Shown here one piece after another: positions 3,503 to 20,691 of a DNA stretch of 64,000 bases. A program made the translations under genes and the position numbers. Under the pieces are notes generated by a model. The model was not told the DNA's origin and searched no databases. It was given only the letters and a program-made list of their open reading frames with translations. Position 1 is the stretch's first letter. Every line of letters begins with the position of its first letter. Source of the DNA: Candidatus Thorarchaeota archaeon (GTDB lineage: Archaea; Asgardarchaeota; Thorarchaeia; Thorarchaeales; Thorarchaeaceae); the NCBI GenBank assembly GCA_048882485.1, contig JBHLRP010000003.1, forward strand, positions 96,001 through 160,000, in the 5' to 3' direction.

Positions 3503-4345
3503 TTAGCTAGGTTTTCCGAGGTCTTCCCATTCAGACCATCTACCATTCCACCATTTATGAACTAGCGTATATGCAGAACCTAATGCAAAGATATCAAGAC
3601 GATTCTCTGACCATGTTGATACAGTTGGTGCGGATGTAAGGGAACCACCAAGATTTTCCCATTGAGACCACTGGCCACTCCACCACTTATGCCAGAGCGC
3701 ATTATCTGTACCTCTTGCAAACACATCGATCCGGTTATTTCCCCATGAAACCGCACCAGGGGCAGATGTCAGTATGCCTTCGAGGGTTTCCCAGCGGGAC
3801 CATTGACCGTTCCACCACTTGTGCCAGAGCGCGTTATCTGTACCTCTTGCAAAGATATCAAGACGATTCTCTGACCATGTTGACGCAGTTGGTGCGGATG
3901 TTAGGATGCCTTCAAGGTCCTCCCACTGAGACCACTGGCCATTCCACCACTTGTGCCAGAGCGCGCTATTTGTGCCTCTTGCAAACACATCGATCCGGTT
4001 ATTTCCCCATGAAACCGCACCAGGGGCAGATGTCAGTATGCCTTCGAGGGTTTCCCAGCGGGACCATTGACCGTTCCACCACTTGTGCCAGAGTGCGCTA
4101 TCTGGGCCTCTTGCAAAGATATCAAGACGATTCTCTGACCATGTTGACACAGTTGGTGCGGATGTAAGGGAACCACCAAGATTTTCCCAGTGAGACCACT
4201 GGCCATTCCACCATTTGTGCCAGAGAGCATCGAGAGGTCCTTTGATGAACACATCGATTCGATTATTTCCCCAAGAAACCGCTGCAGGTGCGGGTTGAAT
4301 TTCTTGCATTTTGATATCACCATCAGCATGAACCTTCTTCAACAA
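3503..4345 (-). CDS. Six-bladed Trp-rich beta-propeller lectin-like protein (PLL/fucose-lectin-type repeats)
   Basis: Six 44-aa repeats SAPxxxxWxxNRxDxFARGxDxALWHKWWNGQWSxWExLxGxLT. Likely start at MQEIQP. Confidence 0.8.
   Translation of the reverse strand: MLKKVHADGDIKMQEIQPAPAAVSWGNNRIDVFIKGPLDALWHKWWNGQWSHWENLGGSLTSAPTVSTWSENRLDIFARGPDSALWHKWWNGQWSRWETLEGILTSAPGAVSWGNNRIDVFARGTNSALWHKWWNGQWSQWEDLEGILTSAPTASTWSENRLDIFARGTDNALWHKWWNGQWSRWETLEGILTSAPGAVSWGNNRIDVFARGTDNALWHKWWSGQWSQWENLGGSLTSAPTVSTWSENRLDIFALGSAYTLVHKWWNGRWSEWEDLGKPS
3520..4290. repeat. Near-identical intragenic tandem repeat, 264-bp unit x3 (each unit two 132-bp subunits)
   Basis: gatatcaagacgattctctgaccatgttga recurs at 3590, 3854 and 4118 (period 264). 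Boundaries approximate. Confidence 0.95.
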
Positions 4346-4808: not shown

Positions 4809-5639
4809 ATGTTGGAATTCATCCAAGGCAAGCAAACCGTCAGACTCTCAAATAGTATTCAATTGGACCTTCTAATCAAGGGACAAGGGAATCCTGTATT
4901 ATGGTTACATTCAGGTTTTCGAGGAAGAATAGGACTTGGGAACCTAGTTACTGCTGTCGAAAAGAAACTCAAACAAGAAAATAATGCGTGGCTCCATATA
5001 ATTCCCAATCTCCCCGGATTTGGTGAAAGCACTCCTGGACCTTCAGGGAACACCAATCCTTATGAGTTGACAGACGCAATTGAAGAATTAATCTGTCTTC
5101 TTAATTACCCCTCAATAGATGTCATCGGATATAGTTTAGGAGCGAATATTGCATCTATACTTGCAAATAGAAATCCAGAGAAAATCCACCGAGTTGTCCT
5201 TCTGGGTACTGCAATAGAAGGATCGAATCTTGATATCTACAGACGAATGCTAGATATGCATAATGACCAAAATTGGGAAGGTCTTGTCAACGAAATAGCG
5301 CAAAACTTGGTTGGAAAGAAGAATAGGTCACAATATGCTAGGATGATGCCATTAGTCAAGAAGCAAGTGTCTTCGAAGAGATTCTCTCAGGATTTAACTC
5401 GTATTCTCTCGTCTGGAGTTCGTCTGGATGTCTTTAAGGAAATCGAGAGCATCACTCATCCCATGTTAATGATTTCAGGCAAAGAAGATCCATTTGTACC
5501 AAGACCAGGCCGTATAGAAATGTTGAAACAAAAAGATAACATCAAACTTGTTCTTCTCGATGGAATTGGACACAATGAGTTAGTATTTCCAAGACAGATA
5601 GATTTGTCAGATCAGATTATAGATTTTCTTCAAAACTAA
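4809..5639 (+). CDS. Alpha/beta-fold Ser hydrolase (possible thioesterase)
   Basis: LPGFGES, GYSLG nucleophile elbow, GKEDPFVP (Asp), GHNE (His). Confidence 0.88.
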   Translation: MLEFIQGKQTVRLSNSIQLDLLIKGQGNPVLWLHSGFRGRIGLGNLVTAVEKKLKQENNAWLHIIPNLPGFGESTPGPSGNTNPYELTDAIEELICLLNYPSIDVIGYSLGANIASILANRNPEKIHRVVLLGTAIEGSNLDIYRRMLDMHNDQNWEGLVNEIAQNLVGKKNRSQYARMMPLVKKQVSSKRFSQDLTRILSSGVRLDVFKEIESITHPMLMISGKEDPFVPRPGRIEMLKQKDNIKLVLLDGIGHNELVFPRQIDLSDQIIDFLQN

Positions 5640-6403
5640 GCTACAATAGTAAGGATGTAGTTTCCTGCATGTGCAAAAAAGACTGGTTTCTGATTCTGGA
5701 TATTATCCGACGAGTGTACTACTATATTATCATTCTCAATGCTCAATTTGTATTCGAGTGGTGATTTAGAACTGATGGAAGAGAAAGCTTTGAATCCAGC
5801 TTCTAATGCCGACCAAATTACAATTTCAGAATTCATCAAATTAAGACTGGGGATAGATTTTGAGAGTAACTCAGTGAATAAACGGATCTCCTCGTGTGAG
5901 TGAATTTTAGAAATCCTTCTAGCAACTCCATTGTGTCTCGCTAATCTTTCACAATCCACGCCAATAATTCCATTTCTTCTGCATGCAGCTACGACATACC
6001 CATCTTTATGGCTAATTGATATTGCTCCATTGAACTTGATTTTTGAATCATTGAGATTGAAAAATGGTTTTCCATGTTTCTCATTCTCAATACTGAAGCT
6101 TTGAAAGTCAATCTGGTCCTGATTGATGATATCGAAAAGGCTTCGCTTTGCTAATACTCTTCCAACATAGAATTGCTTTCTTGTGTTTGGTTGATTGAGT
6201 TTCATTAATCTCCTAATTTCAGATGCAGAAAGATGATCCCGTATCATTGAATCAGCTAATGTGATATTATTGAATCGTGAGCCATGAATTGAAATCCCAG
6301 TACTCGTATGCAGTAGTTGCGTTTGATTATCAATTAGGATTTGATTTTCAATCAGTCTATAGAAAGATTCCTTTAGAATCTCATATTCAGTTTCAGTCAT
6401 CAT
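5636..6403 (-). CDS. 4'-phosphopantetheinyl transferase, Sfp-type
   Basis: GRVLAKRSL, HGKP, ISISHK, IGVDCE, WSALEAGFKA. Confidence 0.88.
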   Translation of the reverse strand: MMTETEYEILKESFYRLIENQILIDNQTQLLHTSTGISIHGSRFNNITLADSMIRDHLSASEIRRLMKLNQPNTRKQFYVGRVLAKRSLFDIINQDQIDFQSFSIENEKHGKPFFNLNDSKIKFNGAISISHKDGYVVAACRRNGIIGVDCERLARHNGVARRISKIHSHEEIRLFTELLSKSIPSLNLMNSEIVIWSALEAGFKAFSSISSKSPLEYKLSIENDNIVVHSSDNIQNQKPVFFAHAGNYILTIVA

Positions 6404-6411
6404 TTGCTAAG

Positions 6412-7482
6412 TTATGCTCCTACAAAGCTGCCTCTCAATTTGCTCGCTACAATTTCTGGAGGTATAACAACGACCTCAGTGTTAAGCAGATGTTGGAAAA
6501 AAAATTCTCCTGCTCGATACCCCCTTGTGAAATTCTGTCTCGTCGCTAACCTGATAAAACATCTATTGGATTTCTCTTGGTCGGTCAAGTCGCCAAGTTC
6601 TAGACTAAAATTGAAAGAAGAATAACCATCATTGCCATAGTACTCTAAAACATTGGATACTCCTTGGGCTAGAGAAGTGATAACCTCATCAGGCGTATCC
6701 TTGAATTTGCCACTTGGAAGAAGTCCAAAAACCTCATTTGTGCAGGTTGGTGAGAATGGAGTAAACCAGTGGGTAGACTCGAGCTGCCCAACATAGCGTA
6801 CTCCTAATTCCTTTTCCAATTCAATAAGGTCATCCCAATATTCATGACCATACTTCTCGCTGTACTCGAGCAATGCGTCCTGAGTCTTTCTAGAATAATT
6901 CGTTGGCTGAGAGGAGGCTATTAATTGTAGATGCGCATGTACAGCACTTGCACCTGCTGGCGGCATATAATTACAATTGAGTGATCCGAAGAGATTTTCA
7001 TCAGGCGGAAGATGGGAAACGAACTCCCTCGCCGCGAGAAATGCATCTCTTAGCATTGATGGGGCAAACTCCTGTGGTTTTAGAAAGTGTTTCTTAGATA
7101 ATACTATAATAGCATGAAATTTCGATAAAGGGAAAAGGTTTGGAAAAAGCACCGATTCACCAACTGTGATTCTTCCTTCTGGGAGGATTTCCTCAGGAAA
7201 CTTCGGTGTCGCCGTATGGACTTTTTCAGGGCAAAAGAAACACTTCTCACTGTTTTCGTTGACAAAAGCATTTAGAAATTCATCATCTGTACTCTCTATG
7301 AGAGTTTCGAGTTTGTCTACAAGCCTGAGTCCAATAATACTCATGTTTCCAGTGAGTGGATCTTTTCGAATTTCAATATCTTGAATATCCATTTCAAAAT
7401 CCATAAGAGGGCTGTGCAGTTTTGCTGATTCGCTGAATCTCTCCATTTTTATCCTGCTTGATACACCCGCCACAACTATCAC
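6412..7482 (-). CDS. galT: GalT-like hexose-1-phosphate nucleotidyltransferase (HIT superfamily)
   Basis: IRKDPLTG, CFFCPE, FPNLFP, GASAVHAHLQ (HxHxQ). Confidence 0.85.
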   Translation of the reverse strand: MIVVAGVSSRIKMERFSESAKLHSPLMDFEMDIQDIEIRKDPLTGNMSIIGLRLVDKLETLIESTDDEFLNAFVNENSEKCFFCPEKVHTATPKFPEEILPEGRITVGESVLFPNLFPLSKFHAIIVLSKKHFLKPQEFAPSMLRDAFLAAREFVSHLPPDENLFGSLNCNYMPPAGASAVHAHLQLIASSQPTNYSRKTQDALLEYSEKYGHEYWDDLIELEKELGVRYVGQLESTHWFTPFSPTCTNEVFGLLPSGKFKDTPDEVITSLAQGVSNVLEYYGNDGYSSFNFSLELGDLTDQEKSNRCFIRLATRQNFTRGYRAGEFFFQHLLNTEVVVIPPEIVASKLRGSFVGA

Positions 7483-8456
7483 TCATTTCTTTTTTTCAAT
7501 TTAGCGGCTTTTGTACCGAATCGCTTAGCATGGTCTTTGACCACTAGTCTCCATGCTAGATTTGGCATTGCATAAAATCCAGATACAGTTTCGTTATCAG
7601 GTACATCCCTTACTACAACCGCATTGATTAATACACTTGAATTGTCACCAAGTGTAAGTCCATTAGAAACTGTGGCTCCAATCCCAATCCAACAATTCTC
7701 ACCAATTTCAGTGCTTCCCCCAATGCACGATGAAGCCGCAAGCTGGGTGTTTGTTTTGATATGTACATTGTGACCAATGTGAACCATGTTGTCAATCTTC
7801 ACACGGTCCTCCAAAATCGTATCACCAAAGGTTCCTCTATCAACACAAGAGCTATTTCCAAATTCTACATCATCACCAAATCGAACGCCGCCTATATGTA
7901 TCAGACGATGAATCCTGTTCTGAGCATCTCTCATTATGCGATATCCATCTCCACCAATACTTGCGTTGGCATCTATGATATTCCTTCTACCAATCTTGAC
8001 CCTGTCATAAATTGCAGTATTAGAGAATACTTCGCTATCATCACCAATGGTAACATCACTACCAACGACAACATAAGGGTGGATTTTTACTCGGTTTCCC
8101 AGATTCACATTTTTGCCAAATCGTGCTGTGGACTCTATCTCGCAACCTTTTCCCATTGTTGGCTTCGAATCATCTGGAGTGAAGGATTTTACATCTTTAT
8201 GAAACTCGTTATGTATCTCTAAAAATGCAATAAGTGGGTTTTCTACTTCGATGTATGTATTCCCCTCAATCTTAGAAACACGATCAAAGAATTTAGGTTC
8301 GACAAGTATGTAAGCTCCCTTGTTCGGAGAGATGTGTTTCAGAAATTGCATCTGATTGATGTAAGCGATATGCTTCTCTACTAGGCTCTGGATTGCACAC
8401 GTACTTGCAGCATCTTGAGGAATTCCATATTTTTTTAGGATATCACTGATAGTCAT
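7479..8456 (-). CDS. lpxD: LpxD-like UDP-aminosugar N-acyltransferase (left-handed beta-helix)
   Basis: VENPLIAF, hexapeptide repeats, IGGDGY, HIGGVRFGDDVEFG, VDRGTFGDT, KIDNMVHIGHNV with the catalytic His position. Confidence 0.85.
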   Translation of the reverse strand: MTISDILKKYGIPQDAASTCAIQSLVEKHIAYINQMQFLKHISPNKGAYILVEPKFFDRVSKIEGNTYIEVENPLIAFLEIHNEFHKDVKSFTPDDSKPTMGKGCEIESTARFGKNVNLGNRVKIHPYVVVGSDVTIGDDSEVFSNTAIYDRVKIGRRNIIDANASIGGDGYRIMRDAQNRIHRLIHIGGVRFGDDVEFGNSSCVDRGTFGDTILEDRVKIDNMVHIGHNVHIKTNTQLAASSCIGGSTEIGENCWIGIGATVSNGLTLGDNSSVLINAVVVRDVPDNETVSGFYAMPNLAWRLVVKDHAKRFGTKAAKLKKRNE

Positions 8457-8518
8457 GATTGCTCGTTTTCATCAAAGGAACTCCTTCCTTTTGAATTATA
8501 CTTTGGATTGAGCTTCAT

Positions 8519-9709
8519 CTATTCAAGTATAGTCAGATTATTCCAGCATACGAGTCGATTCAGAAGTAGTATTCCATCCCATGGTGAGTCATAGATGTGC
8601 ATCTGTCCCGGGGGTACAACTCTCGCGACTCCTCGATACATGACCCCTTCCGCAAACGCTACTGATTTCTCATGATTAAGTATGCAGTTACCAATAGTCT
8701 GTACATTACGAGTGACGAGATTCATTGTATCAAGAACATCGTTAATTGGTTTTAGAAAGATGGTTCGTGATTGGACAGGTTCTTCCAAAGTAACTTCACT
8801 ATCTATTAGTATTGTCCAATCATTCTCTTTTGGAGCTAGAACGTCCTTTTGAAGATCAAGAGCATACTCTGCTCGCTTATTGATAATCATAGTGCCACGA
8901 CCTGGATCAAATTCGGTTTTTGGCATTATTCTGGAAAGACGTTCAAGCTCCTTCGATAGCAGCTCGGCAAAGTGCAGGATTCCCTTTTTATCAGTTTCAA
9001 CAAAAATAACATGTGGTGATGAGCATGCACTCTGCTCAAAGAGAATTGAATCAGTAGCCACGTTCCTAAGATATTTGGCTAAATTCTCCGACTTCAGTGC
9101 CTCTCTATCAAAAACTGCAAACGAGTACTTAGGTCCAAAAACAACATCCTCACAATGAGTTCTTTTGGGAAGACCAGTGATTGCCTCAACTGCTTCTTTC
9201 CCTCCCCAGACAACCCTCGCATCTGCGATCATTGATAGGTCTGTGTTTGCTTGTAAATCGGAGGAAGGAAAGTATACAATCGCCACAGAATTTAGCAAGT
9301 CCCTTCCCGTAACACCTTCAACTTCAATTGTAGCGAATAGCTGCAGAATTGGTAGGACAGTAAGAAGGCTATCTTGAGGTATTCTTAGAACATTCCCGTT
9401 CTTCGCAAGCATTGATTGAAAGAGCGAGAAGAGACTCAATGTCGGGATATTACCTGCTATCCAATGACTTACTAATCCTCTTGGAAATGCCCGAAGCTTC
9501 TTTCGACCGGTTCCACTGAATGAATCTAAATAGTTCTGACTCCCAAGATTAGTTTCGATAATCCTCTTGAGATTTTCACGGCGCAGCCAATTTGAGAGGA
9601 ATGCAATTCCTTCTATCCTCTTCACTTTCTCATCTCTAACAAGCGAACGACTGAATCTATGAAGAATATCTAAAATTGATGAAACTGGAGTTCTAAATAG
9701 ATCAACCAT
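8519..9709 (-). CDS. luxC: LuxC-family acyl-CoA/acyl-protein reductase
   Basis: PRGLVSHWIAGNIP, VWGGKEAV, FGPKYS, FEQSACSSPH (catalytic Cys), PWDG. Frame is open upstream to 9808. Confidence 0.9.
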   Translation of the reverse strand: MVDLFRTPVSSILDILHRFSRSLVRDEKVKRIEGIAFLSNWLRRENLKRIIETNLGSQNYLDSFSGTGRKKLRAFPRGLVSHWIAGNIPTLSLFSLFQSMLAKNGNVLRIPQDSLLTVLPILQLFATIEVEGVTGRDLLNSVAIVYFPSSDLQANTDLSMIADARVVWGGKEAVEAITGLPKRTHCEDVVFGPKYSFAVFDREALKSENLAKYLRNVATDSILFEQSACSSPHVIFVETDKKGILHFAELLSKELERLSRIMPKTEFDPGRGTMIINKRAEYALDLQKDVLAPKENDWTILIDSEVTLEEPVQSRTIFLKPINDVLDTMNLVTRNVQTIGNCILNHEKSVAFAEGVMYRGVARVVPPGQMHIYDSPWDGILLLNRLVCWNNLTILE

Positions 9710-9807
9710 CCCCTCACGGATTATGGTTTCTATCTCATTGAGATCATCAATCAGCAGTACGGGGTCATGGAACTCTCCATTACTAGTAAGTAGCTGAATC
9801 GATATAA

Positions 9808-10926
9808 TTAGTCACCTCTACGCTCAGCAAATGTATCGCCGCATCCACGTGTTTCAGCTTTTTCAGCGCGAGATCGGAATTCGAAATATTTCCCTTTTCT
9901 TCCACATGGACAATCATCGATACCTATTATTTCTCCGATGTCTTCTGTGAGGAGTGCCTGACTCGGATAGCTACTAGCAATCGTAGAAAGAATTTCGATT
10001 AATCCAGGTATACCAACAGGTGCTTCCTCCATTGTATAGATATCTCTGATGATCAAATCAGCAAAATCCGGGATGTGTTTGTGACCTTCAGAACAATCAA
10101 CAAAGAGTAAACCAAGTTGCTCTACCATTCCATAATAGTCCAAGATATTGTGAGGTTCTGTCCCAAAGAGCGCTCCGATTTCACGATTAAAGATCTCCTT
10201 GGTGACAGCCTGAGATGTCAGTTTTTTCCATCCGCCACCATGAAGAATCTTTATGTTGGGAATGTTGATAGTCATTCGTTTTTTCTTCAATGCATGAAAG
10301 AATCGAGTCCAAATAATGTATGTGAATCCGAATCCAAGAACTTCTTTGCTTCCATAGTTCTCAGCAAATGATTTGAGTCTGTCAAAGTTTACGCGTAATT
10401 CTCCGTCAATATTGTCCATTACATATACCGTTTTTCTAGCAAAGCTAGAGATTCCTCGAATTGCTGCTCCTCTGGCAGTAATAGATGCAGCTGTAGGATC
10501 GTTGACATCAGCTGTGTCCATAACTAGGAAAGGTCTTCTTGATGTACCAAGAAAACTCTTGAGTGACGCAACAAGAGCTCTCGTTTGACGCATGGCTGTT
10601 GTTTTGTCGATTGGAATCTTGCTTGGAATCCCTGTAGTGGTGGCACTTGATTTCAGTGTTCTAATGATTTGATCATCTGAAACAGTCTGCAGATTATAAT
10701 GCTTGAACATTGATACAGGAATCGGTGCCACATCTCTCAGGGCTTTGATATCTTCTGGAGTGCTACTGTATGATTTGTAGAATTTTCTCAGTGGAAGACT
10801 AGATTCCATTGAGGCATGAACCTGTTGTTTGATAAACGGTAGTAAGATTTGCTCTTTATCCTGTTGAGGCATCTGGAACTGGTCATTCGCAATCATGGAT
10901 TCAATTGTTATTTCTTCAGAATCCAT
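9808..10926 (-). CDS. luxE: LuxE-family acyl-protein synthetase
   Basis: PIPVSMFK, SSATTTG, GFTY, HGGGWKK, YYGMVEQ, LLTEDIG, C-terminal RGCGD (acylated Cys). Confidence 0.9.
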   Translation of the reverse strand: MDSEEITIESMIANDQFQMPQQDKEQILLPFIKQQVHASMESSLPLRKFYKSYSSTPEDIKALRDVAPIPVSMFKHYNLQTVSDDQIIRTLKSSATTTGIPSKIPIDKTTAMRQTRALVASLKSFLGTSRRPFLVMDTADVNDPTAASITARGAAIRGISSFARKTVYVMDNIDGELRVNFDRLKSFAENYGSKEVLGFGFTYIIWTRFFHALKKKRMTINIPNIKILHGGGWKKLTSQAVTKEIFNREIGALFGTEPHNILDYYGMVEQLGLLFVDCSEGHKHIPDFADLIIRDIYTMEEAPVGIPGLIEILSTIASSYPSQALLTEDIGEIIGIDDCPCGRKGKYFEFRSRAEKAETRGCGDTFAERRGD

Positions 10927-11984
10927 TGAACTAACTCCCTAAGATTGCCCTCTTTCATTCGAACTGGAGAGGTCTTGATAGAAGGATCTGCTAATGCTTC
11001 TTCAATCCAGGAGTCAATATCAACTCCGTCCAGAACTCCTGGTTGGATGTATGTAGATAAACCAAGTTCCTCAAAATCACTTTTCAGTTTTGAGTAAATC
11101 GAATCATTTGTAACGTTCTCATGCCATGTGAGGCATTTTGGCGTTAGCGTCAGGACACCAGCACTATGGGGAGTTCCATTTTGCTGCTCAAGAGCATGTG
11201 CAAGTGCATGACAGACACCAACATAAACACTACCTGTCATCAGTCCACCCAGATACCCGGCTTGAAGAAGGATATCAAGAGCTTTTGCACTTCCTGGTTT
11301 CTCTGATAGTTCCAAAGAGGCTTCTTTTAGAAGGGCAATGATTGATTGCGAAATTGCCTTGGTCATTGGACTTGCTTTCTTAGAAAGCAGGCTTTCATTT
11401 GCGTGGCCAAAGATGTCTCCAATAAATACGTGCAGCTGCTTTTCCTCAATTGTCTGAAGAAATGATGAATCAAGAATAGCCACTTCAGGAATAAGTAATC
11501 TGTGAATATGCGGTATCTTTACGCCCTTCTCATTCTTGATCACCGCAGTTCCATTTCCTTCAGATCCTGTTGACGGTGTTGTTGGAATAGCAATTAGGTT
11601 GATAGATCGTGATGCACGCTCGTTTTCGAGCAGGCTAGGGAAATCGATTGAGTGATTTTCTAAAAGCAACCGTAAGGCTTTGCTACTGTCCATTACTTGT
11701 CCGCCACCAATTGCTACAATCAAATCAATCTTCTTTGAAGTATAGATCTCTCTTAATCTGAGAACCTCGGTTTCCGTAGCAGCTGAGCATTTCTCCTCAA
11801 AAATGGAGTTGCCTTCTAGATTTGAAATTGCCTTTTGATATGCTTCATTTTCACTCGCTTCAGGATAAGCGATTACTAGGATTTTCGCTTCCGATATTTC
11901 CCTCAGAAGCGAGATGGCCCCTTTTCGAAAATGCACGCTCTGATTGTACATTAGACTCGGAATAATTGGTGAACCCTGAATCAT
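10908..11984 (-). CDS. Iron-containing (family III) alcohol dehydrogenase
   Basis: AIGGGQVMDSSK, IPTTPSTGSE, DIFGHANE, GVCHALAHAL, PHS. Confidence 0.9.
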   Translation of the reverse strand: MIQGSPIIPSLMYNQSVHFRKGAISLLREISEAKILVIAYPEASENEAYQKAISNLEGNSIFEEKCSAATETEVLRLREIYTSKKIDLIVAIGGGQVMDSSKALRLLLENHSIDFPSLLENERASRSINLIAIPTTPSTGSEGNGTAVIKNEKGVKIPHIHRLLIPEVAILDSSFLQTIEEKQLHVFIGDIFGHANESLLSKKASPMTKAISQSIIALLKEASLELSEKPGSAKALDILLQAGYLGGLMTGSVYVGVCHALAHALEQQNGTPHSAGVLTLTPKCLTWHENVTNDSIYSKLKSDFEELGLSTYIQPGVLDGVDIDSWIEEALADPSIKTSPVRMKEGNLRELVQWILKK

Positions 11985-11988
11985 GTTG

Positions 11989-13488
11989 CTATACTCCCCG
12001 TTTATTCAACTCTTTCAATTCCGACATCATGACCTTTTCAGACTCATTCTTTGGTAGAGTATCAAGGAACTTGATATGTTTTGGTACCTTGAAAGATGGA
12101 AGATTCTTTCTGCAATGATCAATAATCACCTTCTCAGAAAGCGTGCTTCCTCCTCGAATTACAACATATGCTTTGACAGCTTCCCCCATGATGTCGTCAG
12201 GAACCCCAATCACTCCTACTTCAACCACGTCTGAAATCTTGGCTATTGTTGCTTCAATCTCTCGGGGGCTGATACGATGCCCACCACTTTTAATAAACTC
12301 CTTCTGCCTATCTACAACATAGATGAAACCTTCCTCATCTACAGTTGCCAAGTCGCCTGTGTATAGTTTTCCATCTCTTAGATTTTTTGCAGTCCCCTCA
12401 GGGTCTTTCCAGTAGCCCATCATTATATTGCCACCAGAAGCGACAATCTCTCCAATTTCACCAGGACTGACTGGAGTTCCATCCTCTTTTAAGACTTCAA
12501 GAGTTGTCCTTGGAATTCCTTTTCCACATGAGCCAAGCTTAGACTCCAATAGATCTGGGGGTAGATACGATAGTCGAGCTGTTGCTTCAGTCTGACCGTA
12601 CATAATGAATATCTTTGTTGTAGAGAGAGTTTCCATGAGTTCTATAATAAACGGGTTTGTTAACTTTCCTCCTGCTTGAGCGACGAATCGTAGATGAGGA
12701 AATTTCATTTTCTTAAGAGGTGACCTTCTCAAAAGGATTTGAAACGTCGAAGGGACTCCGGCAAACCCGGTACATTCCTTTTCGACCATTTCATCTAATA
12801 CTTTTCCGGGGAACATAAAACGGTTGTTTAAAACATTTTGTCCACCTACTTTAGTTAATGAGTGTAGCCAACTTGCTCCATAGCAATATGAAAATGGAAG
12901 TACAACCATCATTCTGTCCTTTTCTGATAGTTCGAGATATTCTACAATAGAAGAAGTGTTCCAATGAATATTGTGATGCGAGAGCATCACACCTTTTGGT
13001 GTTCCTGTCGAACCTGATGTGAACAATATAACTGCGAGAGTCTTTACTGCATCGATATCAAGAAACTCAAACTCTTTTCTAGGTATGGAACCAAAATAGG
13101 TGGTACCTTCTATGCTTTTTTCATCAGTTATTATATTCTCAAAGTTGTATTTTTGCACCTTTTTGAGATACCTCTTCTGAATAAAGCAAGTTTCAATCTC
13201 GCAGGACTCAACAACAAAATCAAGGTGGTCTTCGCTCACACTATTATGAAGCGGTACTGAAACCAAGCCTGCACCCATTGTACCAAAATATGCTGAAACC
13301 CAGAAGAATGAATTGTCCGAGATTAGTAGGATTTTGTCATTAAGTTTATGACCAAGGTCCATGAGTTTTGCGGATACCGTTTGGATATTGGAATACAGTT
13401 CAGGATAAGTGATTGTTTGATCGCCTGCAAAAAGGGCAATCTTTCGAAGATTCCTTGACTTTTGGAAGAGGTCATTCACTATATTCAT
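11989..13488 (-). CDS. AMP-forming acyl-CoA/acyl-ACP ligase (ANL superfamily)
   Basis: FTSGSTGTPKG, MYGQTEATAR, LYTGDLA, DRQKEFIKSGG, LPKNESEK. Confidence 0.93.
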   Translation of the reverse strand: MNIVNDLFQKSRNLRKIALFAGDQTITYPELYSNIQTVSAKLMDLGHKLNDKILLISDNSFFWVSAYFGTMGAGLVSVPLHNSVSEDHLDFVVESCEIETCFIQKRYLKKVQKYNFENIITDEKSIEGTTYFGSIPRKEFEFLDIDAVKTLAVILFTSGSTGTPKGVMLSHHNIHWNTSSIVEYLELSEKDRMMVVLPFSYCYGASWLHSLTKVGGQNVLNNRFMFPGKVLDEMVEKECTGFAGVPSTFQILLRRSPLKKMKFPHLRFVAQAGGKLTNPFIIELMETLSTTKIFIMYGQTEATARLSYLPPDLLESKLGSCGKGIPRTTLEVLKEDGTPVSPGEIGEIVASGGNIMMGYWKDPEGTAKNLRDGKLYTGDLATVDEEGFIYVVDRQKEFIKSGGHRISPREIEATIAKISDVVEVGVIGVPDDIMGEAVKAYVVIRGGSTLSEKVIIDHCRKNLPSFKVPKHIKFLDTLPKNESEKVMMSELKELNKRGV

Positions 13489-13727
13489 ACTTTAACACCA
13501 TGATTCTTTAGTGCTTCTTTCATTAGCCCGATTGTGGTCATCTCAGTAATTTCTTCAACATCCAGGGCTAAATCCCATTCATCCTCAAACAAAGCCATCA
13601 GGTCCATATGAGTAACCGAATCCCAGCTATCAATGTCGTCAGGTGTACTATCATCCGAAAACTCATCTGGTTCAACACCAAATACCTCGCAGATATATTC
13701 ATTGAATTTATCGAGTTGCGACATCAT
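13485..13727 (-). CDS. Acyl carrier protein
   Basis: 80 aa, very acidic, WDSVTHMDL Ppant-Ser motif. Overlaps the ligase start by 4 nt. Confidence 0.93.
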   Translation of the reverse strand: MMSQLDKFNEYICEVFGVEPDEFSDDSTPDDIDSWDSVTHMDLMALFEDEWDLALDVEEITEMTTIGLMKEALKNHGVKV

Positions 13728-13734
13728 AATTCAC

Positions 13735-14136
13735 CTACTTTGATTTTATATGCATAACTCTGGATTCAGCAACTCCTTCAAGGACAACTTTTCCGTCTTG
13801 ATTATAAACCAATGTTTCTACGGTTGCGACTTTTCTTTTGTCGATGGAAGTAATTGTCAGCTTTGCTGTTACAGTGTCATTGATTCTGACTGGGAAAGTA
13901 TACTTTATTGTTTGACTCATCCAAAGGTTTCCTGGACCAAACATTTTTGTCAATGCAGCAGAAACTAGAGCTGCAGAGAGAATTCCATGAGCGATTCGTC
14001 CTTTGAAAATTGTTCTATTTGCGAACTCCTCATCGGTATGCAGGGGGTTGTCATCACCACTGATCTCAATCAGCTTTTGTATATCTGCTTCAGTGATCTG
14101 TTTACTGATTTCGATAGTGTTTCCAACCTTCATCAT
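13735..14136 (-). CDS. MaoC-family (R)-specific enoyl hydratase/dehydratase
   Basis: SGDDNPLHTDEEFA, RIAHG, GPG hot-dog hydratase-2 motif. Confidence 0.93.
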   Translation of the reverse strand: MMKVGNTIEISKQITEADIQKLIEISGDDNPLHTDEEFANRTIFKGRIAHGILSAALVSAALTKMFGPGNLWMSQTIKYTFPVRINDTVTAKLTITSIDKRKVATVETLVYNQDGKVVLEGVAESRVMHIKSK

Positions 14137-14283: not shown

Positions 14284-15207
14284 ATGGTTGACTCTCTCAC
14301 CCTCACACTGAGAGGGAACGATATTATGATTAAAGTTCTCTATGTATGGAATACTGCAGGGACTATATCTCCAGTAGCAACATGGCTGAATGATCATGGG
14401 CATGAAGCACGAATCATCATGCACTCATCATATGACAAGTATGGCGCTACTAGAATCTCAAAGGGAGCTGTAATGATAAACTCTAGAAGAGCTTTCTACT
14501 GGTCGATTATTAAATACATTCTACTATTTCGACCGACCCATATTCATGTAAACGCTAGTATTGCTGGTTTAGTCCTTGCACGTCTGTTTGCTCCAACTAC
14601 TCCCATAATTTTACAGTACCACGGCAACGAGGTTCGCTTTAGAAGTAAAGTTCATCCAGAAGCCTTGCTCGCTGACAAAGTGATTGTGTCAACTCCCGAT
14701 TTGAAAAGATTTGGCGAGTGGGTTGATCGGCCAGTAGAGAGTATCTTCTATTATAGAGGTGGAAGGAAAAAGGGAACCGCTCTAATGGTGTACGCCTCAT
14801 ATTTCCCTGATAAACGTGCTTTAGCAAAATCTTGGTGTGCTAAGAATAACATCAAACTACGGATTTATGATCGCGATGCTGAGGGATGGATTCCTTTTGA
14901 GGAGTTTCCTTCTATTCTTTCGAAGTATGAGTACTATCTTGATTGGAAAGGGATTAGTGATTCTCAGACTTGTAGTAAAACAGCACTGGAGGCAATGGCA
15001 TGTGGGTGCAAGGTTATTACAGATTATGATGTTGATAAAGTCTTAAATGACTATAATTTTGCAACCCCCAAGACATACATAAAGCTCTACCTCTCATTGA
15101 AGAAACCATTGCCCTCCATAAGGCGTACGCTAATAGCAATTGCAGGAATTATGAAATGGTTTGCAAACCGGTTGGGCAATTCCCCTGTGCCTTCTGGATG
15201 GAGATGA
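14284..15207 (+). CDS. GT4-like (GT-B) glycosyltransferase
   Basis: PTHIHVN, QYHGNEVR, ADKVIVSTPDL, SKTALEAMACG. Likely start ATG 14326. Confidence 0.78.
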   Translation: MVDSLTLTLRGNDIMIKVLYVWNTAGTISPVATWLNDHGHEARIIMHSSYDKYGATRISKGAVMINSRRAFYWSIIKYILLFRPTHIHVNASIAGLVLARLFAPTTPIILQYHGNEVRFRSKVHPEALLADKVIVSTPDLKRFGEWVDRPVESIFYYRGGRKKGTALMVYASYFPDKRALAKSWCAKNNIKLRIYDRDAEGWIPFEEFPSILSKYEYYLDWKGISDSQTCSKTALEAMACGCKVITDYDVDKVLNDYNFATPKTYIKLYLSLKKPLPSIRRTLIAIAGIMKWFANRLGNSPVPSGWR

Positions 15208-15213
15208 CAACCA

Positions 15214-16128
15214 TTGAAACGATTACGTGTTTTATTTGTGGGGAATACTGCTGGAGCGATGACACCTGTTGCGGACTGGTTGTGTGCGAATGGTCATGAA
15301 GCGATAATCCTAGAAATGTACCACAATGACAGGTACGAATTGACATCAAGGTTTCCTTTTGCAAGAATGAGTACTTCAGCAACTGATTTTGTGGTTTCAA
15401 TAAAAGATGCAATTCTTGATTTAAACCCGACCCACATACATGTTAATGCATATTACAGCAGTCTTCCAATTATTCGAGCTTGCTCTCCATTCACTCCTGT
15501 CATTATGCATTATCATGGAATCGAAATACGATTCCGAAAGAGAATCCATCCAACTGTACGATTATTTGCAGACAAAGTGATTGTATCGACTCCGGATCTG
15601 AGAAAGTATGGAGATTGGTATGGTTGTCCTGTGCCAAAAGAATTCTATTTCCGTGGAGGTCGACAATTAGGAACAGCGGTAATGTTTTTTGGGCAAGTAT
15701 TACCTCTAGCTGACACGGATGAAAAGACGCAGGATGCAGAAAAGATCTGCAAGGAGCTAGGCTTGGAATTAACGATTATAAACAACCAAAGAGGTGAGAG
15801 TGTACCAAGCCATAAGATGCCTGAATTTCTTTCTAGTTTTGAATATCTCTTTGATTTCAAAGGACTTGTACATTCTCCGATTTTTTCTAAAACAGCGCTT
15901 GAGGCAATTTCCTGTGGAGTCAAAGTGATTCACGACTCAGATTTGACCAAGATTTATACATCTTATCCTATCAAAACACCCAAGGACTACTATGAACTAT
16001 ATCTCTCGGTGGAAAATCCCCCAGCATACAAGATACCCTTTCAAATGCTAGCATCTCTGATTCTTACTTCCTATTTTGCTCGAATGTTGGGCAGAAAAAT
16101 CAGGAGTGTTATGAAAAGGACTTCATGA
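15214..16128 (+). CDS. GT4-like glycosyltransferase (tandem paralog)
   Basis: Same motifs: PTHIHVN, HYHGIEIR, ADKVIVSTPDL, SKTALEAISCG. Confidence 0.78.
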   Translation: MKRLRVLFVGNTAGAMTPVADWLCANGHEAIILEMYHNDRYELTSRFPFARMSTSATDFVVSIKDAILDLNPTHIHVNAYYSSLPIIRACSPFTPVIMHYHGIEIRFRKRIHPTVRLFADKVIVSTPDLRKYGDWYGCPVPKEFYFRGGRQLGTAVMFFGQVLPLADTDEKTQDAEKICKELGLELTIINNQRGESVPSHKMPEFLSSFEYLFDFKGLVHSPIFSKTALEAISCGVKVIHDSDLTKIYTSYPIKTPKDYYELYLSVENPPAYKIPFQMLASLILTSYFARMLGRKIRSVMKRTS

Positions 16129-16133
16129 TTACT

Positions 16134-16787
16134 CTATTCAAAAATCCATGTACCACGAACTAAGATGAATGCCTCTGCAAACTCTGTGTTTATATATACT
16201 CCATCGCTTCTCATGATGGCTTCAAAATTATGCGGACTAAACCAATTGTTCCTCAATTCGAATTGGCTTTTATAGCATGCAAGCGCTTTCATTTTCATGT
16301 CCACTTCTTCTTTAGTCAGGGGCACGTATAGGTTTGGATTGAAGTCTTTTGATGTTCCCTTTATTCTATATTGGATGAGTGTCACTCGATGTCTAGTCGC
16401 AGCTCTCAAAGCTTCCTCTGCAACGGTTTTATGATCCTGATGAAAATCTCCATTGTAAGGCGCAATAATTAGATCTAATTCCAAGTCATTCCTATAGTCA
16501 TATATTATATCTAGGATTTCTTGCCTTGAATCTGGTAAGTACTTATTTTCAAAGTCATGATAAATACAACTTTTCACTCCAAGTAATTTTGCCGCTTTTT
16601 CATCTTCCCTCATAAGTTCGCCTTGTGGAAACCTGGTGCCGACGAGAGTGTCATCACATTTCGTAAAAACATGATACTCTATCTCGCATCCCTGCGTTGC
16701 GAGTTTGTACAATAGCGCACCAGCTCCAATTATTGAATCATCAGTGTGTGGTGAAAGAACCAGTGCTCTCTTTGGATTAATCTGCAT
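16134..16787 (-). CDS. PIG-L/LmbE family N-acetylglucosaminyl deacetylase
   Basis: SPHTDDSIIG (HxDD), HQDH, KMKALACYKSQ, FAEAF. Confidence 0.9.
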   Translation of the reverse strand: MQINPKRALVLSPHTDDSIIGAGALLYKLATQGCEIEYHVFTKCDDTLVGTRFPQGELMREDEKAAKLLGVKSCIYHDFENKYLPDSRQEILDIIYDYRNDLELDLIIAPYNGDFHQDHKTVAEEALRAATRHRVTLIQYRIKGTSKDFNPNLYVPLTKEEVDMKMKALACYKSQFELRNNWFSPHNFEAIMRSDGVYINTEFAEAFILVRGTWIFE

Positions 16788-17056: not shown

Positions 17057-18103
17057 ATGAGTGGGAAAAAATGGATAATGAAGCAGTATTGGCGTGTAGG
17101 AACCATTCGGACTCTTTTCAGTCTAGTTCTAAGTATGTTAGTATTGGGCAAGTACTACTATGAATTCGTTCCAATACTTGCGCCGCTTGGTTTGCTAGGA
17201 GCACTAATACTCGGGTTTCTGCTTGTCCTCCTCTTCCTCGGTATAGGATATATCTATGATGTAAGACTTAAGCTATGGAATGAGACATTCCAGGTGGGTG
17301 TAGAACGTGATCCTTACCAACAGACTCCAAATATTCGAAGCTACTCAATGGATTTTCCAGTACTATATGCATTTCTTTTAACATTCAGAAAATCACTTCT
17401 CAAAAGAAATCTAGATTTCTCAAAAATTGACGAACTTGTCCAGTACTATGATGCCTTTTTTCATAGAAATGCCACAGAAAAGAATGATCTGGTGGACTCA
17501 ATAAAAAGTAATGAGGCATTTCTCGACAGAAATCCATTCACCAAAGAACGGTTACAGATTCAAAAAGGAAGAAGTAAAGGAGCAAGAATGAAGAAGTCTT
17601 TTCAGACGCAGATATTGAGGATCAATTATGTGCAATCACTCACAGGATCTGTGCAGGACGTCCTCGTCATCTCTGCTTTGTACGTCCCAATTCTTTTTGG
17701 TGCTACATTACCCAGAAACCTTCTCCTCAATATGATTTGGCTCATATCCCTTCCTCTGTTTATTCTTCTGGTTGTTCTTGGCTGGTACTATGATAAACAA
17801 CTTAGAATGTGGGGACCAGAGTTTTCAGTAAGGATCGAAAGAGACCCATATAGCTATGTCCCCGAACCAAAGTTGGTGGCATCATTTTTCCCATTCATTT
17901 ATGCGTTCCTAAGCACATCCTATGATGTGTTGAATGAAATTAATTCGGATACTAGGTACATAGAGAAGATAATTGGTTATTTTGATAGCTATTCTGCCCT
18001 TAGATCTTCGGTGGAGGATGATATGAATCGAGGAAAACAGATTCGATTTGAATTGGGAAACATTTGGATGAAACAGAAAGGAGAAGATACCAATGGGAGT
18101 TAA
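17057..18103 (+). CDS. Membrane protein with two copies of an unknown 2-TM module
   Basis: Each half has 2 hydrophobic helices followed by G(Y/W)xYDxxLxxW...ERDPY. Confidence 0.8.
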   Translation: MSGKKWIMKQYWRVGTIRTLFSLVLSMLVLGKYYYEFVPILAPLGLLGALILGFLLVLLFLGIGYIYDVRLKLWNETFQVGVERDPYQQTPNIRSYSMDFPVLYAFLLTFRKSLLKRNLDFSKIDELVQYYDAFFHRNATEKNDLVDSIKSNEAFLDRNPFTKERLQIQKGRSKGARMKKSFQTQILRINYVQSLTGSVQDVLVISALYVPILFGATLPRNLLLNMIWLISLPLFILLVVLGWYYDKQLRMWGPEFSVRIERDPYSYVPEPKLVASFFPFIYAFLSTSYDVLNEINSDTRYIEKIIGYFDSYSALRSSVEDDMNRGKQIRFELGNIWMKQKGEDTNGS

Positions 18104-18605
18104 AAAATGGTTGATGAAACAACAATGGCGTCTAACTCAAATTAGAGGAATTTGGAGCTTGTTTTATGGGACCTTCATGCTGTCGATTGCGTTCTATGGG
18201 TTTGTCCCTATATTAAGCGAAATGGGTCCAATAGCTCCGTTTATCTTCTCTGCCACTCTCTTTCTAATATTCTTGGTCGGGGGCTATATCTACGACAGAG
18301 TGTTGATTATGTGGGCACCATCTCAAGAGGTGTGGATGGAACGCAACCCTTACCAGTATGTTCCTCAGCCAAGAGACCGCATTTTTTGGTTTCCATTCTA
18401 TTCAATACTACTCGACGTTTCAGAAGAGATGGCAATTAGCTATGGTTTGGACACTTCAGTCATTGATGAGGTTAGAGAATACTATGCAGAACTTGAACAA
18501 TATACTGCAGAACGCAAGGAGGACATAGATGCTGCAAGTAAGCTAAGAGAAAGTTTTCGGGCTAAGCATTCATTCAAGGATATCTTTAACGATGACACAC
18601 CATGA
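18093..18605 (+). CDS. Membrane protein, single copy of the same module
   Basis: KKWLMKQQWR...GGYIYDRVLIMW...ERNPY mirrors the N-half of the upstream gene. Confidence 0.8.
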   Translation: MGVKKWLMKQQWRLTQIRGIWSLFYGTFMLSIAFYGFVPILSEMGPIAPFIFSATLFLIFLVGGYIYDRVLIMWAPSQEVWMERNPYQYVPQPRDRIFWFPFYSILLDVSEEMAISYGLDTSVIDEVREYYAELEQYTAERKEDIDAASKLRESFRAKHSFKDIFNDDTP

Positions 18606-19399
18606 ACCTAGGTGTCCTTCCACAAAGAAAGCTATGCAAACCAAGGATATTGAGAATAATGGAAGAAGTAGTTATAGTCGCTGGGGGATTGGGAATCCGA
18701 CTTGAGGAAATGCAGAAAGAAATTCCAAAGACATTACTCAGAGTAGGTGGCAAGACAATCTTAGACTGCATCATAGCAACCATTGAAGATGCGACTAAAG
18801 GGAAATATCGACTTTTTATCGCAGCTGGCTATTACTATGATGACCTTAAGAGCTATATTGAGGAAAGAGAATCGAAGTATTCAAGAGTAGATGTAGTGGA
18901 GGCCAGGAATTGGATGGAAGGTAATGCATCTACGCTTCTTGCAGTTGAGGATAGGATAGAAAATGACGACTTCATCCTTCAGATGTCTGACCATCTCTTC
19001 ACACCAGAAACGTACAAAGGATGCATCAAGAATACGTCAATACCTCTTCCTTTTGTTTGTGGGCAACCTCGAACAGATGGGATACCAGACTATCTCGATC
19101 TTGATGATGCAACAAAGGTTTTGTCGGATGATTCTTTCAAGATTATAGAGATAGGAAAAGATATTGAAGAATGGAATATGATTGACATGGGCGTATTTAG
19201 ACTCACTAAAGATGCATTTTCTGTAATTGCATCCCTACCTAACAATCAAAAATCTCTTAGTCAGTATGTCATGAAATGGAGATCAAAGCAAGATTTCTAT
19301 GTAAACCCGCAGCCGCAGGCTATATGGAAGGATATAGACACACCAATGGATCTTCAATGGGCAATAAAGATGGATTTACAAGGCATATGGAAGTCATAA
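18602..19399 (+). CDS. NTP transferase, IPCT/choline-phosphate cytidylyltransferase-like
   Basis: AGGLGIRL, PKTLL, GNASTL, MSDHLF, DLDDATKV, IGKD, WKDIDTP. Likely start ATG ~18659. Confidence 0.82.
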   Translation: MNLGVLPQRKLCKPRILRIMEEVVIVAGGLGIRLEEMQKEIPKTLLRVGGKTILDCIIATIEDATKGKYRLFIAAGYYYDDLKSYIEERESKYSRVDVVEARNWMEGNASTLLAVEDRIENDDFILQMSDHLFTPETYKGCIKNTSIPLPFVCGQPRTDGIPDYLDLDDATKVLSDDSFKIIEIGKDIEEWNMIDMGVFRLTKDAFSVIASLPNNQKSLSQYVMKWRSKQDFYVNPQPQAIWKDIDTPMDLQWAIKMDLQGIWKS

Positions 19400-19519
19400 C
19401 GAGGAACAGAATGATGTTAATTCCTATCAGGCGAGATTATTGCAAGCTTGTAGACTGCCAATATACCATCATTCTCAATAGATGAATATGTTTCGATAAT
19501 TCATTGGGGAACAGCAAAA

Positions 19520-20680
19520 ATGGTATTTAGGACAAACTTGGCAAGATTATTCAAGATTATCACGCAAGGCTTGGACTATATTTGGCCAAAGGATCCCAGA
19601 ATTCTCATCTTTGGTTCAAGCATGGGATTATTTCCAAGTGGTAATGCAAAGGCACTTTTCAATTATATCACCGGAAACCCAGATTCTCCATTTCATTGTC
19701 ACTTTTTCCTTCGCGATTGTGGACCAGATTCTAGATACCGAAGATACACTCCCTTTAATCTAAAAACCTATCTTCTATTTCTAAAGGCAAAAACAGTACT
19801 CATAACGCATGGTCTCTATGACATCGGACGACTAAATGTCTGTTCTAAGAAAAAGAATATCATCAAGTTGTGGCATGGTCGACCGGGCTTGAAAGGCGAT
19901 GGATACTCTAGCAAGAGCTCGACTCGTGAGCAACTTGCAGAGTTAGAAAGAGAAGATAGAAAGACCACTGCATTTCTAGTATGTTCTCGAATGGAATCAT
20001 TCATGCGGGCTTATTCAAACGTATTACATCCCAGACAGATTCTGCCGCTTGGATATCCGAAAAATGATATACTGCTGAAAGATGCCCCGCCCCCGACAAC
20101 ACTACGGGATATATTTCCAACTCTCCCAGACTTTGAACAAGCTCTGCTATATGCTCCGACATGGCGAGATTATGCTCAAACGAAGTTTTTTCCCTTCGAT
20201 GATTTTGATGCTGAAGCTCTTGAGAGCTGGTTAGAGAAGCGAAATGCAATTCTTCTTCTACGAGCTCATATTAGTGATTCGATACCTGTCAGTGAATCCA
20301 AGAGAATAAGATCTCTAAGCTTCGAGGATTGCAACGAAATCACTGATATATTAAAGGAAATAAATGTGATAATAACAGACTATTCATCAATAACAGCTGA
20401 TTTCCTTCTTCTGGATAGACCAATAATCTACATTCCATACGACAGAAACCAATTTGAGTCACGGATTGGGTTCTGCTATGGTAACTTTGATTTCTGGACA
20501 CCCGGTGAGAAGGTATATTCATTTGCAGATTTTATTCAGGCTGTTAATGTAGCATTAGAAGGTGATGATGGCTATTCTGAGCAGAGAAAGCTGGTAAATC
20601 AATTTGTCAATGAGTTTCAATCACATAACTCAACTGAGAGGGTCTATACGTACCTTAAGAGGAAACTTGGATATAGCTAG
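19520..20680 (+). CDS. CDP-glycerol/polyol glycerophosphotransferase (TagB/TagF family)
   Basis: LWHGRPGLK, GYPKND, LYAPTWRD, ITDYSSITADFLLLDRPII. Confidence 0.92.
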   Translation: MVFRTNLARLFKIITQGLDYIWPKDPRILIFGSSMGLFPSGNAKALFNYITGNPDSPFHCHFFLRDCGPDSRYRRYTPFNLKTYLLFLKAKTVLITHGLYDIGRLNVCSKKKNIIKLWHGRPGLKGDGYSSKSSTREQLAELEREDRKTTAFLVCSRMESFMRAYSNVLHPRQILPLGYPKNDILLKDAPPPTTLRDIFPTLPDFEQALLYAPTWRDYAQTKFFPFDDFDAEALESWLEKRNAILLLRAHISDSIPVSESKRIRSLSFEDCNEITDILKEINVIITDYSSITADFLLLDRPIIYIPYDRNQFESRIGFCYGNFDFWTPGEKVYSFADFIQAVNVALEGDDGYSEQRKLVNQFVNEFQSHNSTERVYTYLKRKLGYS

Positions 20681-20691
20681 GAGCTGACTTC

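Follow-up and report, generated by a model that had tools for sequence, protein, structure and literature searches.

Genes and protein families of the operon

We analysed a 64,000-nucleotide stretch of DNA from a Candidatus Thorarchaeota archaeon (bases 96001-160000 of contig 3; hereafter the window), which belongs to a metagenome-assembled genome (MAG) of 3.96 Mb that is 90.5% complete and has a contamination estimate of 5.8%. The subject of the analysis was an operon that encodes an acyl carrier protein (ACP) together with acyl-activating and acyl-reducing enzymes and a transferase of the LpxD type. The open reading frame list of the window places nine genes in the same direction on the minus strand, from 14136 to 5636, plus a serine hydrolase gene convergent to them, at the positions given in an earlier note made from the sequence alone, and all of the motifs named in that note are intact in the translations. 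The genes are close-packed and some of them overlap, the intergenic distances in operon order being 7, -4, 4, -19, 98, 62, -4 and 8 bp. Domains were called by Pfam and NCBIfam profile searches of the window proteins, and motifs were read off the translations. These searches backed all of the protein identities proposed previously but that of the GalT-like protein, for which the backing came from an AlphaFold model and a Foldseek search.

The first gene of the operon encodes a MaoC-type (R)-specific enoyl hydratase/dehydratase (13735..14136, 133 amino acids (aa)), with a PF01575 match of 76 bits and the motif ISGDDNPLH. It is followed by a stand-alone ACP (13485..13727, 80 aa; PF00550, 23.8 bits against a cut-off of 20.8) carrying Ser37 within DSWDSV, by an AMP-forming ligase of the ANL family (11989..13488, 499 aa; PF00501 and PF13193) with the P-loop TSGSTGTPK and the motifs YGQTE and TGD, and by an iron-type alcohol dehydrogenase (Fe-ADH; 10908..11984, 358 aa; PF00465 and PF25137), in whose translation candidate Asp/His metal-ligand positions were found, for example in GDIFGH and HALAH. 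Downstream lie the genes of a LuxE-family acyl-protein synthetase (9808..10926, 372 aa; PF04443, 208 bits) with the motif RGCGD and of a LuxC-family acyl thioester reductase (8519..9709, 396 aa; PF05893, 267 bits) with Cys229 in QSACSSP. The last three genes encode an LpxD-type three-domain hexapeptide N-acyltransferase (7479..8456, 325 aa), a GalT-fold (HIT branch III) nucleotidyltransferase or nucleoside diphosphate (NDP)-sugar phosphorylase (6412..7482, 356 aa) and an Sfp-type 4'-phosphopantetheinyl transferase (PPTase; 5636..6403, 255 aa). The alpha/beta-fold serine hydrolase gene on the plus strand (4809..5639, 276 aa; PF00561, nucleophile elbow GYSLG) meets the 3' end of the PPTase gene with an overlap of 4 bp.

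The PPTase has the two-domain architecture of the ACPS superfamily (GxD..E, WxxxE..K), with the motifs GKP, GVDCE and WSALEAGFK present and with matches to PF01648 (31.5 bits) and PF22624 (28.2 bits) that both exceed the cut-off. In profile searches of the MAG, the operon ACP was the sole PP-binding match and the operon PPTase the sole ACPS-family match; the uniqueness of the ACP is valid for this MAG only, the profile being too weak for the ACPs of two other Thorarchaeota loci. These results are in line with the proposal of the earlier note that the operon has its own ACP and PPTase, and they argue that the module primes its own carrier, modification of the ACP being predicted. The note had seen no ketosynthase, and a true one was not found in the MAG. 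The ketoacyl-synthase profile gave partial matches to short stretches of thiolase-like frames of ~390 aa, and it also matched all of the archaeal control genomes.

LuxE and LuxC were compared with the LuxC-LuxE fatty acid reductase of bioluminescence (PDB 7xc6), to which they align with E values of 5.6e-19 and 3.7e-20 respectively. The two families are shared and the active-site cysteines are at the expected places: Cys362 of LuxE lies ten residues before the C-terminus, and Q226, C229, S231 and P232 of the QxxCSSP motif of LuxC are invariant across nine Asgard orthologues. In contrast, the operon proteins score far under the NCBIfam equivalog cut-offs (115.3 bits against 750 for LuxC and 70.8 bits against 550 for LuxE), no luciferase or LuxD was seen among the window genes, and the operon substrate is probably the distal carboxyl group of a short acid tethered to the ACP. 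A LuxCDE-like arrangement, in which the hydrolase would act as LuxD and free an acid from the ACP, LuxE, LuxC and Fe-ADH would reduce it to a fatty aldehyde or alcohol, and the LpxD-like enzyme would work separately, draws some support from the hydrolase: LuxD is an alpha/beta-fold enzyme, and an alpha/beta hydrolase is kept beside the module in Asgard loci, adjoining the PPTase gene in Lokiarchaeum ossiferum and Promethearchaeum syntrophicum. However, the hydrolase has no LuxD-family match in Pfam or NCBIfam and the arrangement leaves the acyltransferase without a donor, and we consider it very unlikely. The hydrolase is probably an editing thioesterase, an esterase being the other candidate.

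The LpxD-type protein passes the cut-off of the subfamily NF002060 (232 bits against 207) and stays below that of the equivalog TIGR01853 (225.7 bits against 242.5). Residues 20-304 align with the best PDB match, Acinetobacter baumannii LpxD (PDB 4e75, E 1.7e-32), with HIGHNV placed on QIAHNV, and H229 is invariant in the homologue alignment. The AlphaFold2 model (pLDDT 92) consists of an N-terminal alpha/beta domain, a beta-helix and a C-terminal helix at 299-324, and its best 25 Foldseek matches are all LpxD chains. PF04613, the N-terminal uridine-binding domain, had no match in the window protein and is recorded for several homologues; in this N-terminal region, where the model has its alpha/beta domain, the alignment to LpxD chains begins at residue 20. 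Homologues at 59-87% identity are encoded by further Thorarchaeota and Sifarchaeia. The protein therefore resembles the LpxD of lipid A synthesis in its three-domain architecture, in the catalytic His of HIGHNV and, presumably, in its use of an ACP-thioester donor. It differs from it in falling below the LpxD equivalog cut-off and in its host, as the MAG, at 90.5% completeness, yielded no lipid A pathway: in agreement with the earlier note, profile searches gave no matches to LpxC, LpxB and LpxK, and none above the cut-off to LpxA.

The GalT-like protein has no Pfam match and reaches only 19 bits against the NF008724 cut-off of 448. Its AlphaFold2 model (pLDDT 89.6) was matched by Foldseek to Arabidopsis ADP-glucose phosphorylase and to E. 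coli and human GalT (E 1e-17 to 1e-12, TM 0.63-0.73). It shares with these members of branch III of the HIT superfamily the fold, a conserved CxxC (here CFFC) and the HxHxQ active site (here HAHLQ), and C81, C84, H123, H132, H182, H184 and Q186 are invariant in 35 homologues. In contrast to this likeness, identity to them is 14-17%, and the protein falls into a distinct family with >1,000 members, whose genes are mostly solitary, as are those of its distant homologues in Desulfacinum and a Promethearchaeota MAG, which lie in unrelated contexts. Among the homologue contexts examined, the gene is coupled to an LpxD-type gene only in Thorarchaeota and Sifarchaeia. The 4-bp overlap with the LpxD-type gene needs the upstream GTG start; if the downstream start is used, the protein has 353 aa. 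The possibility that the gene is an extra paralogue was rejected, this being the only copy in the genome. Together, the LpxD-type N-acyltransferase and the GalT-fold enzyme point to a nucleotide sugar as acceptor, as had been proposed, and their coupling suggests an undescribed way to an N-acylated UDP-amino sugar.

Archaeal origin and distribution of the cassette

The earlier note had raised the possibility that the region is a bacterial chimera. An assembly or binning artefact, that is, a bacterial fragment joined to an archaeal contig, would be in keeping with gene families typical of bacteria, with the contamination estimate of the MAG and with a GC content of 0.40 in the first 22 kb of the window against 0.46 in the remainder. 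Against it, the region is internal to a contig no shorter than 160 kb, and an identical LuxC protein, flanked on either side by the same genes, occurs in two more NCBI assemblies, in one of them on a contig of 148 kb, as well as in two independent assemblies of Logan runs. The Thorarchaeota orthologues are 65-90% identical and fully syntenic, and closed genomes from Asgard cultures contain the core of the operon. A search of the MAG for archaeal and bacterial SSU rRNA gave no match. The window encodes a two-domain CDC48 ATPase, and the two closest operon-bearing genomes are Candidatus Thorarchaeota of the same family, in agreement with the Asgard host proposed earlier. The recurrence in four independent assemblies and the closed Asgard genomes with the core refute the artefact, to which we leave practically no probability, and the operon is archaeal DNA.

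Of 400 species genomes searched in the phylum, ten besides the MAG of the window have a full-length LuxC orthologue (47-77% identity), including the closed genomes of the cultured strains L. ossiferum Loki-B35 and P. syntrophicum MK-D1 and MAGs of Sigyn-, Hel-, Hermod- and Heimdallarchaeota. Synteny in these genomes extends over ACP, ligase, Fe-ADH, LuxE and LuxC, one of the ten loci being a 4.9-kb fragment with Fe-ADH, LuxE and LuxC only, and MaoC mostly accompanies them, in Thor-, Loki- and Helarchaeota as in other Asgard loci. In L. ossiferum, a short hexapeptide acyltransferase and MaoC precede the core, and an alpha/beta hydrolase, a PPTase, a second hydrolase and a DegT aminotransferase follow it. 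P. syntrophicum, a Helarchaeota MAG and Sigynarchaeum each have a hexapeptide acyltransferase and between them a PPTase, a DUF354 protein, a sugar epimerase/dehydratase and a polysaccharide deacetylase; other Asgard loci also have phospho-sugar transferase genes near the core. Only in three Thorarchaeota genomes among the Asgard loci compared is the short transferase replaced by an LpxD-type enzyme followed by a GalT-fold gene. By gene content, then, the feature specific to Thorarchaeota is the predicted three-domain LpxD-type transferase coupled to a GalT-fold nucleotidyltransferase. Since the same core is present in two cultured Asgard strains, its function is directly testable.

A wider scan, with one genome per GTDB species, detected the syntenic core also in Clostridium, Myxococcota, Acidobacteriota, Verrucomicrobiota, Lachnospiraceae, Gammaproteobacteria, DPANN and Thaumarchaeota, with an LpxD-like gene nearby in three of the Myxococcota-type loci, and a search for longer homologues returned fused LuxE-LuxC proteins of 794-833 aa in bacteria such as Odoribacter, with no V. 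cholerae protein among them. The cassette is hence less rare in archaea than the earlier note had implied, being present in at least 11 Asgard genomes as well as in DPANN and Thaumarchaeota MAGs. A tree built from 40 LuxC sequences placed the Thorarchaeota in one clade (support 100/98) and Loki-, Hel-, Hermod- and Sigynarchaeota in another (88/90), and the backbone that joins them to Heimdallarchaeota, Clostridium and a mixed clade had no resolved support. The DPANN and Thaumarchaeota copies fell in the mixed clade with bacteria. Asgard monophyly of LuxC needs two changes on the careful tree, and the strongly supported branches permit one.

PP-binding matches were detected in 96 of the 400 Asgard genomes, many of them as tandem copies within frames of 2,700-3,800 aa. 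The idea that an ACP occurs in the phylum only with this cassette was accordingly rejected, and carrier chemistry is less foreign to Asgard archaea than had been assumed. The giant frames hold two to five tandem PP-binding domains (for example G016:C1:573944-574801, G053:C95:34387-35448 and G135:C1:871059-872180, given as genome, contig and positions) and occur in 30/31, 8/12 and 10/12 genomes of the families f8, f10 and f13. From their domain content they look like megasynthases of the polyunsaturated fatty acid (PUFA) synthase or polyketide synthase (PKS) kind.

Relation to tetronate cassettes and proposed pathway

The closest known counterpart of the operon is in Vibrio cholerae O1, where we take VC0248 to be an ACP and VC0252 a hexapeptide acyltransferase. 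The genes VC0248-VC0252 (wbeK-L-M-N-O, or rfbKLMNO) are assigned to the biosynthesis of tetronate, the O1 antigen being a poly-perosamine N-acylated with tetronate (3-deoxy-L-glycero-tetronyl). The wbeL product has 471 aa and an ATP-binding domain, wbeM encodes an iron alcohol dehydrogenase and wbeN is a single fused gene of 2478 nt combining LuxE and LuxC. According to the Pfam and NCBIfam assignments, the Thorarchaeota operon contains all of these parts, namely ACP, AMP-ligase, Fe-ADH, LuxE/LuxC and hexapeptide acyltransferase; the gene order would be alike, with wbeL, wbeM and wbeN placed as in published work and VC0248 and VC0252 identified as above, and both sets lie within a surface-glycan locus. 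In contrast to the V. cholerae cassette, LuxE and LuxC are separate genes in the operon, the transferase is of the three-domain LpxD type, MaoC, a PPTase, a GalT-fold enzyme and a hydrolase are added, and the organism is archaeal.

Sets of ACP, ligase, LuxE and LuxC have also been described in the flagellin glycosylation islands of Aeromonas (group II) and of Enterobacteriaceae. As in the operon, carrier protein, ligase, LuxE and LuxC stand there among glycosyltransferases, together with nonulosonic-acid genes, and glycan acylation has been proposed. Unlike the operon, these islands use a short-chain dehydrogenase/reductase (SDR, FabG) instead of Fe-ADH, lack a PPTase and an LpxD-type enzyme, and target flagellin-linked pseudaminic acid. 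From these comparisons the module appears to belong to a widespread cassette type, a kinship that the earlier note had missed, and one that is, to our knowledge, biochemically unsolved in every organism, V. cholerae O1 included.

Because the cassette matches the V. cholerae genes for tetronate, a C4 dihydroxy-acyl group, the acyl group of the operon is most likely short and hydroxylated and not a lipid. We consider it probable that the operon is a Thorarchaeota variant of the tetronate-type (wbeK-O-like) operons for ACP-dependent N-acylation of glycans, which would place a short hydroxy-acyl group onto an amino sugar. We infer every catalytic step from family membership, intact motifs and gene context. 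The Sfp-type PPTase would convert apo-ACP to holo-ACP, onto whose thiol the AMP-ligase would presumably load a small acid, probably a C4-C6 unsaturated or dicarboxylic one. In the PDB, the ligase has malonyl-CoA, oxalyl-CoA and o-succinylbenzoate ligases among its close relatives; small dicarboxylates are the substrates of several of these relatives, which weakly favours a small acid here too. MaoC would then hydrate the 2-enoyl-ACP to (R)-3-hydroxyacyl-ACP, LuxE would adenylate the free distal carboxyl group and pass it to LuxC for reduction to the aldehyde, and Fe-ADH would reduce the aldehyde to the alcohol, yielding a dihydroxy-acyl-ACP. Such a scheme, in which each of the genes has a task, could parallel a possible origin of tetronate (2,4-dihydroxybutyrate) from ACP-bound malate. 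The LpxD-type transferase would finally transfer the acyl group from the ACP to the amine of a UDP-amino sugar, and neighbouring glycosyltransferases would build the N-acylated sugar into a surface glycan, with the hydrolase probably acting as an editing thioesterase.

The acceptor would be supplied by the GalT-fold enzyme, for example as UDP-glucosamine (UDP-GlcN) from GlcN-1-P, or its amine would be freed by a PIG-L/LmbE-family de-N-acetylase encoded near the operon (16134..16787, minus strand; PF02585, 61 bits), which is a possible source of the free sugar amine. A PIG-L gene also adjoins the ACP in a Promethearchaeota locus, and the nearest non-Asgard relatives of the LpxD-type protein with a source name, from Chloroflexi (36-39% identity), are encoded in polysaccharide loci beside PIG-L. 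In the polysaccharide locus of one Chloroflexi MAG (JACPPQ010000003.1; L070:9349-12566), a PIG-L gene is directly followed by an LpxD-like gene and then by a GFO/IDH/MocA-hexapeptide fusion. The two first genes are possibly a deacetylate/re-acylate pair outside lipid A synthesis, and their adjacency lends some support to the same logic in the operon.

The earlier note had seen lipid-A-like chemistry in the operon, with the LpxD-type enzyme placing a long (R)-3-hydroxy fatty acyl group from the ACP on UDP-GlcN to give an acylated anchor in the archaeal envelope. For such a glycolipid speak the passing of the NF002060 cut-off by a transferase that has all three LpxD domains, the ability of MaoC to yield (R)-3-hydroxyacyl thioesters, and the best NCBIfam match of the ligase, a long-chain fatty-acid ligase subfamily. 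However, the transferase misses the equivalog of lipid A LpxD, LpxA, LpxB, LpxC and LpxK were not found in the MAG, and there is no ketosynthase or acyl-ACP dehydrogenase to make the enoyl substrate of MaoC from a scavenged saturated acid. A long acyl chain would moreover leave LuxE, LuxC and Fe-ADH without a role, and the related V. cholerae module is assigned to a C4 acyl group. We therefore find lipid-A-like chemistry unsupported and a glycolipid of this kind unlikely. A further version, in which Thorarchaeota acquired and rewired a dedicated ACP and LpxD-type enzyme independently of the Raetz pathway and put a longer 3-hydroxy-acyl group on a UDP-amino sugar, we hold to be quite unlikely; if true, the envelope of an archaeon would contain an acylated amino-sugar glycolipid that anchors in the membrane in the manner of lipid A.

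Among bacterial LuxC proteins, the clade nearest to the Asgard ones is that of Clostridium (40-42% identity), where ACP, ligase, LuxE and LuxC occur without Fe-ADH. In one Clostridium MAG (L038, 2886-16882), the neighbours of the cassette are genes for two ABC exporters, a sigma-54 activator, HpaB and an acetyl-CoA hydrolase, and not glycan genes. Such surroundings, and the origin of LuxC/LuxE as a fatty-acid reductase, would fit a core of ACP, ligase, LuxE and LuxC that makes a small molecule, either an aldehyde or alcohol metabolite or a lipopeptide-like compound, next to sugar genes that are there by coincidence. This is, in our view, distinctly improbable for the operon. In all Asgard loci examined, the core comes with a hexapeptide or LpxD-type acyltransferase and stands among sugar-modifying genes, the transferase gene of the operon overlaps the GalT-fold gene by 4 bp (if the upstream start is used), and mutations in wbeL, wbeM and wbeN abolish or alter the V. 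cholerae O antigen.

Several points weigh against the tetronate-type glycan acylation that we favour. LpxD enzymes normally act on long 3-hydroxyacyl chains, and the best PDB match of the ligase is a fatty-acyl/feruloyl-CoA synthetase. The Clostridium cassette stands beside exporters and not glycan genes, and therefore the cassette is not always glycan-linked. The PIG-L gene is missing from two other Thorarchaeota loci, both of which retain the GalT-fold gene; that PIG-L must accompany the operon is accordingly unsupported. Substrate, chain length and order of steps are deduced from the genes, for V. cholerae as for the operon, and the likeness between the two would rest on domain content and on a gene order taken in part from papers.

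Archaea are usually described as being without ACP-based acyl chemistry, and a search of the literature library available found no work linking LpxD or ACP/PPTase chemistry to Asgard archaea, nor did one by assembly and run accession find any on these assemblies. If the favoured reading holds, an ACP with its own activating enzyme would serve glycan decoration in relatives of the eukaryotic ancestor. In the O1 antigen of cholera, the cassette contributes to the protective epitope and the phage receptor, and the archaeal form, whose LuxE and LuxC are separate proteins and which brings its own PPTase, could lend itself well to a study of the chemistry.

The surrounding glycan island

The operon lies among genes for two GT4-like glycosyltransferases, the PIG-L de-N-acetylase, a nucleotidyltransferase, a TagF-like glycerophosphotransferase, a GT2 glycosyltransferase and FkbM-type methyltransferases. 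The two GT4-like genes (14284..16128, plus strand) encode divergent short paralogues with weak PF13439 matches. The LuxC gene was found in none of 16 same-genus genomes. Two of these genomes share the flanking CCG-domain gene (93-95% identical) and differ from the window upstream of it, where they have only two membrane proteins and, in one of them, GT2 genes in common with it. Low GC and differing gene content at the same site in one genus form a pattern typical of a hypervariable surface-glycan island, of which the operon would be accessory cargo.

Two overlapping genes at 17057-18605 of the window encode proteins of 348 and 170 aa without Pfam match that share a repeated unit. Of all island genes, these alone recur in the two same-genus genomes compared as well as in a further Thorarchaeota genome (40-59% identity), and their products may form the membrane core of the apparatus that makes the glycan. 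The nucleotidyltransferase, the TagF-like CDP-glycerol glycerophosphotransferase (172 bits) and the GT2 glycosyltransferase encoded at 18602-21630 suggest, by their families, a glycerol-phosphate-containing polymer in an archaeon. On the other side of the operon, between it and the methyltransferase genes, a 280-aa protein (3503-4345) with four DUF346 repeat matches (110 bits) looks like a propeller lectin. Finally, the frame of a paralogue of the CCG-domain protein (window 21792-23360) runs across one TGA and one TAG, located at corresponding points in two genomes of the genus (G000:C32:22366-23535 and G375:C2:136474-137628), which could reflect recoding, selenocysteine or two adjacent genes.

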